From sequence record OR906198.1: a DNA stretch of 64,000 nucleotides; one strand, 5' to 3'. Below, one piece after another: positions 14,304 through 15,088 of the stretch; position 1 is the first letter of the stretch; each line of letters starts with the position of its first letter. Both the position numbers and the translations under genes were made by a program. The DNA comes from Escherichia phage BP32. A model generated the notes under the pieces. It was not told the DNA's origin. It worked only from the letters and a program-made list of their open reading frames with translations, and did not search any database.

Positions 14304-14885
14304 ATGATTAAATTGGTATTCGCTTATTCTCCAACTAAAACAGTCGAAGGCTTTAATGAATTAGCATTCGGTTTAGGTGATGGTTTACCATGGGGACGAG
14401 TTAAAAAGGACCTCCAGAATTTTAAAGCTCGCACTGAAGGCACAATTATGATTATGGGTGCTAAAACATTCCAGTCATTGCCTACATTACTTCCAGGTCG
14501 TAGACATATTGTAGTGTGTGACCTTGAACGTGATTATCCTGAAACTAAAGACGGTGATTTAGCACATTTCTATATTACATGGGAGCAGTACATAACTTAC
14601 ATTTCTGGCGGTTCAATTCAAGTGTCAAGCCCTAATGCACCATTCGAGGCTATGCTTGATCAGAATTCTAATGTAAGTGTAATTGGCGGACCCGCTCTGT
14701 TATATGCTGCATTACCTTATGCAGATGAAGTAGTTGTTTCTCGCATCGTTAAAAGGCATCGTGTTAATTCAACGGTTCAATTAGATGCAAGTTTTCTTGA
14801 TGATATAAGCAAGCGTGAAATGGTTGAAAGTCATTGGTATAAAATAGATGAAGTAACAACCCTTACGGAATCAGTGTATAAATGA
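14304..14885 (+). CDS. frd: Dihydrofolate reductase
   Basis: 193 aa, same length as T4 DHFR; directly upstream of td. Confidence 0.85.
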
Positions 14886-15088
14886 GCAATAAATTAAAAG
14901 TTAAGGATGTTCCTAATGCTATGGCCCTTTTTATTTGTCGGCAGATGCATCAAGGGCCTATGACACCAAAACAATATCTTAAAGGTGAGCGTTCTTTAGG
15001 ATTTACTCGCAAAGCAAAACAAATGGTTAAATTAGGATATAAGCCTAACTTTGCCAAATATCCTTCTACATATTCTTGGATGAACTAA
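14882..15088 (+). CDS. Small basic ORF (68 aa) between frd and td, unknown function
   Basis: ATG overlaps frd stop (ATGA) and its TAA overlaps the td ATG (TAATG); lysine-rich product. Confidence 0.5.

Follow-up and report, generated by a model that had tools for sequence, protein, structure and literature searches.

A small accessory gene of T4-like phages in the polymorphic frd–td junction

Introduction

In phage T4 the genes for dihydrofolate reductase (frd) and thymidylate synthase (td) overlap directly through an ATGA with nothing in between (NC_000866, frd 145109-145690, td 143235-145112), as the initial annotation of the DNA studied here had correctly stated. In this DNA the same frd 3′ end and ATGA are present, and the place of T4 td is taken by a 68-codon ORF, to which we give the working name B, with td still held in a stop/start overlap. 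Compared with T4 there are two coupling junctions instead of one, and the last codons of B supply td with a GGA seven nucleotides 5′ of its start.

The closest described relatives of B are members of the protein family phrog_9550, labeled "unknown function" in PHROGs. Full-length members encoded in the same place (frd–td or A–td, see below) and with the same overlaps are gp245 of Shigella phage pSs-1 (YP_009111049.1), YP_010072904.1 of PD112 and YP_009850431.1 of Klebsiella phage Marfa; the copies in Tequatrovirus are 100% identical to B in protein sequence and show no material difference. A more distant relative is gp235 of the Phapecoctavirus phAPEC8 (YP_007348396.1), which shares 43% identity with B over 97% of the length as well as its size, its charge and an LGY-P motif. 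Unlike B, gp235 is not adjacent to td or frd but is one of many small ORFs of early type that follow each other in a long array.

The same locus can be occupied by a second family, phrog_1928 (115–126 aa, "unknown function" as well), which we call A and which is found in T2, RB27, AR1 and JD18. Like B it is flanked by short direct repeats, and in Marfa, CIP9 and 4S the two genes form a tandem, but its sequence family is different. In Tequatrovirus A lies 20 nt from frd and 45 nt from td without any overlap, whereas B overlaps both neighbors.

A further point of comparison is provided by the PeSL cassettes of T4-type genomes, in which small ORFs of hypervariable regions are reportedly shuffled in a modular way, as Arbiol, Comeau and Krisch are said to have described in 2010. 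Like these cassettes B is a small accessory ORF that related phages exchange at a fixed site through recombination in flanks that are short and conserved. Unlike them, it has no early promoter or stem–loop on either side and its joints are stop/start overlaps within an operon.

The frd–td locus

The window, that is the whole 64-kb stretch of DNA that we analyzed, has its closest 25-kb matches in the Escherichia phages GEP001, vB_EcoM_P8 and BMB16 (~96% identity), and on sequence grounds we assign it to Tequatrovirus. The initial annotation had placed the 68-codon ORF exactly between frd and td with overlaps on both sides, and this proved accurate, including the translation quoted there. The features of the locus are as follows.

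14304..14885, plus strand, frd, dihydrofolate reductase, 193 aa (ORF list)
14882..14885, plus strand, ATGA stop/start overlap of frd and B, the ATG of B (14882-14884) lying over the TGA stop of frd (14883-14885) (sequence)
14882..15088, plus strand, ORF B, 68 codons, 68 aa, phrog_9550 (sequence, ORF list)
15078..15090, plus strand, GGATGAACTAATG, a Shine–Dalgarno-like GGA (15078-80) followed by TAATG (sequence)
15086-15090, plus strand, TAATG stop/start overlap of B and td, the TAA of B (15086-15088) and the ATG of td (15088-15090) having base 15088 in common
15088..15948, plus strand, td, thymidylate synthase, 286 aa, without intron here (ORF list)
15088..15124, plus strand, 5′ portion of td of the Dhakavirus type, inherited along with B (alignments)

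The frd gene shares 95% nucleotide identity with T4 frd, and all records matching it annotate a dihydrofolate reductase. The GGA in front of td falls within the codons for the conserved Ser-Trp-Met at the C-terminus of B, and in Marfa and Serratia phage 4S a TGGATG likewise precedes the td start; we suggest that this GGA may be the ribosome-binding site of td.

Distribution of ORF B

B matches the PHROG profile phrog_9550 over its entire length (E 1.3e-45, residues 1–68 on profile positions 1–68 of 68). A tblastn search of 50,697 phage records found B in 237 of them, with a protein identity of at least 99% in 88 and of at least 90% in 134 records. RefSeq genomes are among the latter (pSs-1, ACG-C40, fPS-90, PD112 and JS10), so that the same ORF is present at the same site in reference T-even genomes, an outcome that the initial annotation had itself named as speaking against its reading. 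In every T4-like record that we opened (JS10, UP19, sutha, sb4, SP21535, pSs-1, fPS-65, ACG-C40, CHD16UKE1 and PD112) B is located between frd and td, and the overlaps are identical. With more than 130 T4-like phages carrying B at the same site we regard it as an ordinary accessory gene. It is already catalogued, and the stretch studied here adds one more carrier.

The annotation of B is uneven. Its usual label in GenBank is "hypothetical protein", JS10 leaves it unannotated, and in ACG-C40 and IME339 only a 42-aa 3′ part is annotated. Two records (vB_EcoM_P8 and PYPS2T) name it "flagellar biosynthesis protein", which is likely a misannotation. The sb4 record shows a split td and a truncated B, apparently the result of assembly frameshifts. 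Our literature searches found no paper on an ORF between frd and td.

Among 5.8 billion proteins the relatives of B form 40 clusters at 90% identity, and when 1.84 billion representatives were searched exhaustively with an HMM, about 10 related clusters and one spurious repeat protein were recovered. Judged by these searches the B family appears to be tiny and confined to phages and phage-like contigs. One cluster of 73 aa has a 5-residue insertion after Gly25, and in a Tequatrovirus-like contig of IMG/VR (2938479101_000007, 7490-7694) B is seen as two overlapping tblastn pieces, which would reflect a frameshift or else a duplication inside the gene.

Occupants of the junction

For a survey of the junction we used as query the last 400 nt of frd joined to the first 400 nt of td and read the span between them in each record. 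A sample of 26 Tequatrovirus rows, taken at even steps along the ranking, comprised 19 with an insert of about 416 bp (including a shorter variant of 386 bp in REP1), five with the 206-bp B insert and two without any; the share of A in Tequatrovirus is about 70% and that of B about 20%. The 416-bp insert encodes the 115-aa ORF A, which is unrelated to B in sequence. A is present at an identity of at least 90% in 363 records including T2, RB5 and AR1; the junction pattern puts also RB3, RB6, RB14 and RB68 into this state, and RB27 is a carrier as well. In the T2 record AY310907.2 the A ORF is unannotated. The direct junction of the T4 type is limited to about 40 records, several of which are T4 itself. 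The direct overlap noted in the initial annotation is true of T4 but does not describe the norm.

Other genera add to this picture. In Mosigvirus frd and td overlap directly by ATGA, the Jiaodavirus JD18 has A only, and among Dhakavirus-like phages JS10 and UP19 carry B while the slot of fDHCT2 is empty. The tandem frd–A–B–td is found in the Marfavirus Marfa, the Kanagawavirus CIP9 and Serratia phage 4S, and B always abuts td. From these sequences at least four slot states can be distinguished, namely empty (as the T4-type junctions show), B only, A only and the A+B tandem. In the retrieved CIP9 locus frd and A are separated by another ORF of 111 aa (1826-2161), so there is room for three small genes in the slot. 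Pattern scans of IMG/VR directed at the three types of junction yielded chance matches for the most part and only 11 true T4-like loci (3 direct, 4 with B, 4 with A), which are too few for frequencies.

Because the A+B tandem occurs in distant genera the slot is probably old, and an insertion into a T4-like junction, as proposed in the initial annotation, is just one of the directions in which the change may have run. An 8-bp direct repeat, AAATGAAA, flanks the A cassette in RB27 and T2 (1895-1902 and 2312-2319 of the retrieved RB27 locus), and a deletion between the two copies yields exactly the T4 junction TATAAATGAAAC. The 5′ end of T4 td is moreover identical to that of A-carrying phages. 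As the deletion recreates the ATGA junction, the textbook overlap of T4 looks like a deletion scar. B for its part is bracketed by AATGA. We suggest that an old slot once held A and B and then underwent repeated loss and re-acquisition, a scheme for which a few genera were compared by parsimony rather than through a reconstructed tree.

One record (FriedrichZschokke, bas41_0068) labels A a "putative homing endonuclease", which is likely a misannotation. We considered a homing endonuclease function of A as an explanation of the slot and found no support for it, since A is without a nuclease domain (Pfam, E up to 1) and without PDB relatives. Similarly, A and B do not appear to be a conserved pair outside Straboviridae, as no A-like ORF is present within the 4-kb flanks around distant B homologues.

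Exchange between genera

A comparison of this stretch with the Dhakavirus JS10 gave a nucleotide identity of 97.6% for B, 81.8% for frd and 75.8% for td, with dS values of 0.11, 0.86 and 2.5, respectively. Sliding-window and column-level alignments place the left breakpoint of the segment in common with Dhakavirus exactly at the ATGA; genus-specific frd sequence reaches to 4 nt before the ATGA in all eight Tequatrovirus and both Dhakavirus B carriers examined. On the right side seven of the eight Tequatrovirus B alleles are followed by Dhakavirus-type td codons 6–12, extending to about 15124 (diagnostic sites 15103, 15104, 15117, 15120, 15121 and 15123). This td tract is common to JS10, UP19 and the B-less fDHCT2, whereas T4, RB27 and SP21535 have the other type; SP21535, itself a B carrier, changes to T4-type td within the first codons.

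These alignments indicate that the B allele was recently exchanged between Dhakavirus-like and Tequatrovirus phages. The eight Tequatrovirus alleles differ by 0–2 nt over 207 nt while their flanks are mosaic and vary locally by up to 10–40%, and such near-uniformity amid variable flanks fits a recent arrival and spread. We propose a single recent introgression, followed by a spread through ordinary phage recombination. The donor would have been Dhakavirus-like, the linked td tract being the one feature that gives the direction, and one of the crossovers would have been confined to 6–7 nt of identity at the stop/start motif.

Alternatively, Tequatrovirus may have retained B vertically from an ancestral frd–A–B–td slot and passed it on to Dhakavirus, with T4 and its relatives having lost it; no insertion would then have taken place in this lineage. 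The position of B directly 5′ of td in three deeply diverged genera agrees with this course of events, and deletions between the AATGA motifs around B and the AAATGAAA copies around A could turn fuller states into the direct and the A-only junctions. We nevertheless consider it unlikely, because seven of the eight alleles are linked to the td 5′ tract of Dhakavirus-like phages, B-less fDHCT2 included, and not to that of other Tequatrovirus phages, and because the small variation of B compared with that of its flanks points to a recent arrival and spread.

An RNA element as the cause of the near-identity of B with Dhakavirus was also considered and rejected: the folding z-score is 0.27 and the synonymous sites diverge freely in other genera. 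Separately, we observed in frd a patch (14554-14700) with only 56–78% identity to the B carriers sutha and sb4 while the adjoining frd sequence is 94–100% identical; this patch appears to be a mosaic recombination tract inside the enzyme gene.

Product of ORF B

The product of B is a protein of 7.9 kDa with a pI of 10.3 and a net charge of +11, and all members of the family are positively charged (+8 to +16). AlphaFold2 with a 17-sequence alignment gave a three-helix model (pLDDT 79.7; helices 13–24, 29–39 and 43–50), which supersedes an earlier run with a shallow alignment (pLDDT 62). In this model the invariant G40 forms the turn between helices 2 and 3, ahead of the Lys/Arg-rich third helix. 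Searches of Pfam (E up to 10), NCBIfam and PDB sequence profiles gave no match for B, and no relatives outside its own family were detected by sequence or structure. Outside Straboviridae the homologues (phAPEC8 gp235 and three uncultured phages) are found in runs of small early genes with neither td nor frd within the 4-kb flanks.

We tentatively propose, without much confidence, that the product could be a dispensable early nucleic-acid-binding accessory factor, helix-turn-helix-like and with a host-takeover or regulatory role, rather than an enzyme of nucleotide metabolism. Two other functions deserve consideration. The protein could be an anti-defense or host-takeover effector acting on a host protein instead of nucleic acid, and the patchy distribution would then reflect a benefit specific to the host strain. 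B is indeed patchy within genera, small, recently moved between genera and found among small early genes in unrelated phages. This reading seems rather doubtful to us, as no characterized protein in Pfam, NCBIfam or PDB is similar to B and as the uniform high positive charge of the family fits nucleic-acid binding at least as well.

The other function would tie B to thymidylate synthesis, either as an RNA-binding regulator of td translation or as an adaptor between dihydrofolate reductase and thymidylate synthase in the phage dNTP-synthetase complex. In all Straboviridae genomes examined B stands immediately 5′ of td and overlaps its start, and across genera it is as conserved as td (amino acid identities of 62–81% for B, 73–76% for td and 43–49% for frd). 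However, T4, T2 and most T-even phages do without B, and the homologues in Phapecoctavirus and the three uncultured phages are unlinked to td within the 4-kb flanks; a td-specific role is therefore less likely and we judge it quite improbable.

Conservation of ORF B

At the 36% G+C of this DNA about 7% of random codons are stops, and from composition a given frame would stay open over the 204-bp insert about 0.7% of the time. The dN/dS of B against Marfa, CIP9 and 4S is 0.08–0.28, at saturating synonymous change, and relatives down to 34% identity retain the size, the charge and the motif set. K34, G40, M48 and G52 are invariant in the family alignments, and conservation is at least 90% at K4, K6, P11, R20, L51, Y53 and P55. 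B has the size of distant phrog_9550 members and their motifs, that is an N-terminal K-x-K-V, P11, R20, K34, G40, M48 and L-G-Y-x-P. These comparisons show that B is under purifying selection, and since it is conserved in this manner across genera it is more than a chance ORF. That B stayed open by chance in spacer DNA that codes for nothing, or is what remains of a larger mobile gene (for instance a homing endonuclease) after its decay, as might be thought from its shortness and from the endonuclease label on the alternative occupant A, is hardly credible: the conservation effectively refutes it, B has no nuclease motif, no NUMOD module (Pfam, E up to 10) and no PDB relatives by profile, and A fares no better in Pfam (E up to 1) or PDB.

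Expression and evolution of the junction

No promoter-like or terminator-like site was found inside or at the edges of B (14882-15088), and B showed no unusual RNA structure. B has the architecture of a coupled gene, with stop/start overlaps on both sides on the same strand and no promoter or terminator between, and hence should sit on the pre-replicative frd–td–nrd transcripts. Its start context is that of td in T4, with the same frd 3′ end, a poor Shine–Dalgarno sequence and ATGA. We envisage that B would be transcribed within the pre-replicative frd–td–nrd message and that ribosomes terminating on frd at the ATGA would probably start B, as they start td in T4. Ribosomes finishing B could then be handed over to td through the TAATG, aided by the GGA inside B.

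Taken as a whole B is probably a real gene of T4-like phages, small and accessory (phrog_9550), coupled to its neighbors and passively mobile in a polymorphic frd–td cassette slot, with a product that may bind nucleic acid; for the identity of the gene and its evolution our confidence is high. The initial annotation had read the ORF as a gene inserted into the frd–td junction with translational coupling preserved. An extra gene compared with T4, the stop/start overlaps on both sides and a lateral acquisition by Tequatrovirus are borne out, but the ORF is neither unusual nor new. B would have moved not by an activity of its own but by recombination in the flanks and at very short identities of the stop/start motifs (AATGA). 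The left breakpoint coincides with the ATGA of frd, and on the right about 37 nt of td of the donor type were carried along.

Two consequences follow for the view of this locus. The classic frd/td overlap of T4 is a minority state, since at this place most T-even phages, T2 included, have either of two small genes that are unrelated to each other. B further offers a clean natural case of gene exchange between genera, in which one boundary lies exactly at a stop/start overlap. The impact on genome annotation is little, because B is already present in PHROGs and, as a hypothetical protein, in more than 100 GenBank records. It is an attractive but speculative extension, and one that we would not expect to hold as a whole, that stop/start motifs (ATGA, TAATG and AAATGAAA) might serve as recombination joints at which genes are inserted into, swapped in or deleted from an operon exactly and across genera with the expression of the neighbors undisturbed, that the T4 overlap would be a deletion scar in this sense, and that B could be the founding member of a class of phage proteins that are small and basic, consist of three helices and bind nucleic acid.

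Introns and neighboring nrd genes

Both td (15088-15948) and nrdB (18822-20000) are intronless in this DNA; nrdA extends from 16506 to 18770, and the gap between nrdA and nrdB is only 51 nt long, leaving no mobE. Rfam gave no match anywhere in the 64-kb window, group I introns included. Other B-carrying phages have the td intron together with I-TevI. As td is interrupted in some B carriers and intronless here, B and the intron are independent of each other.
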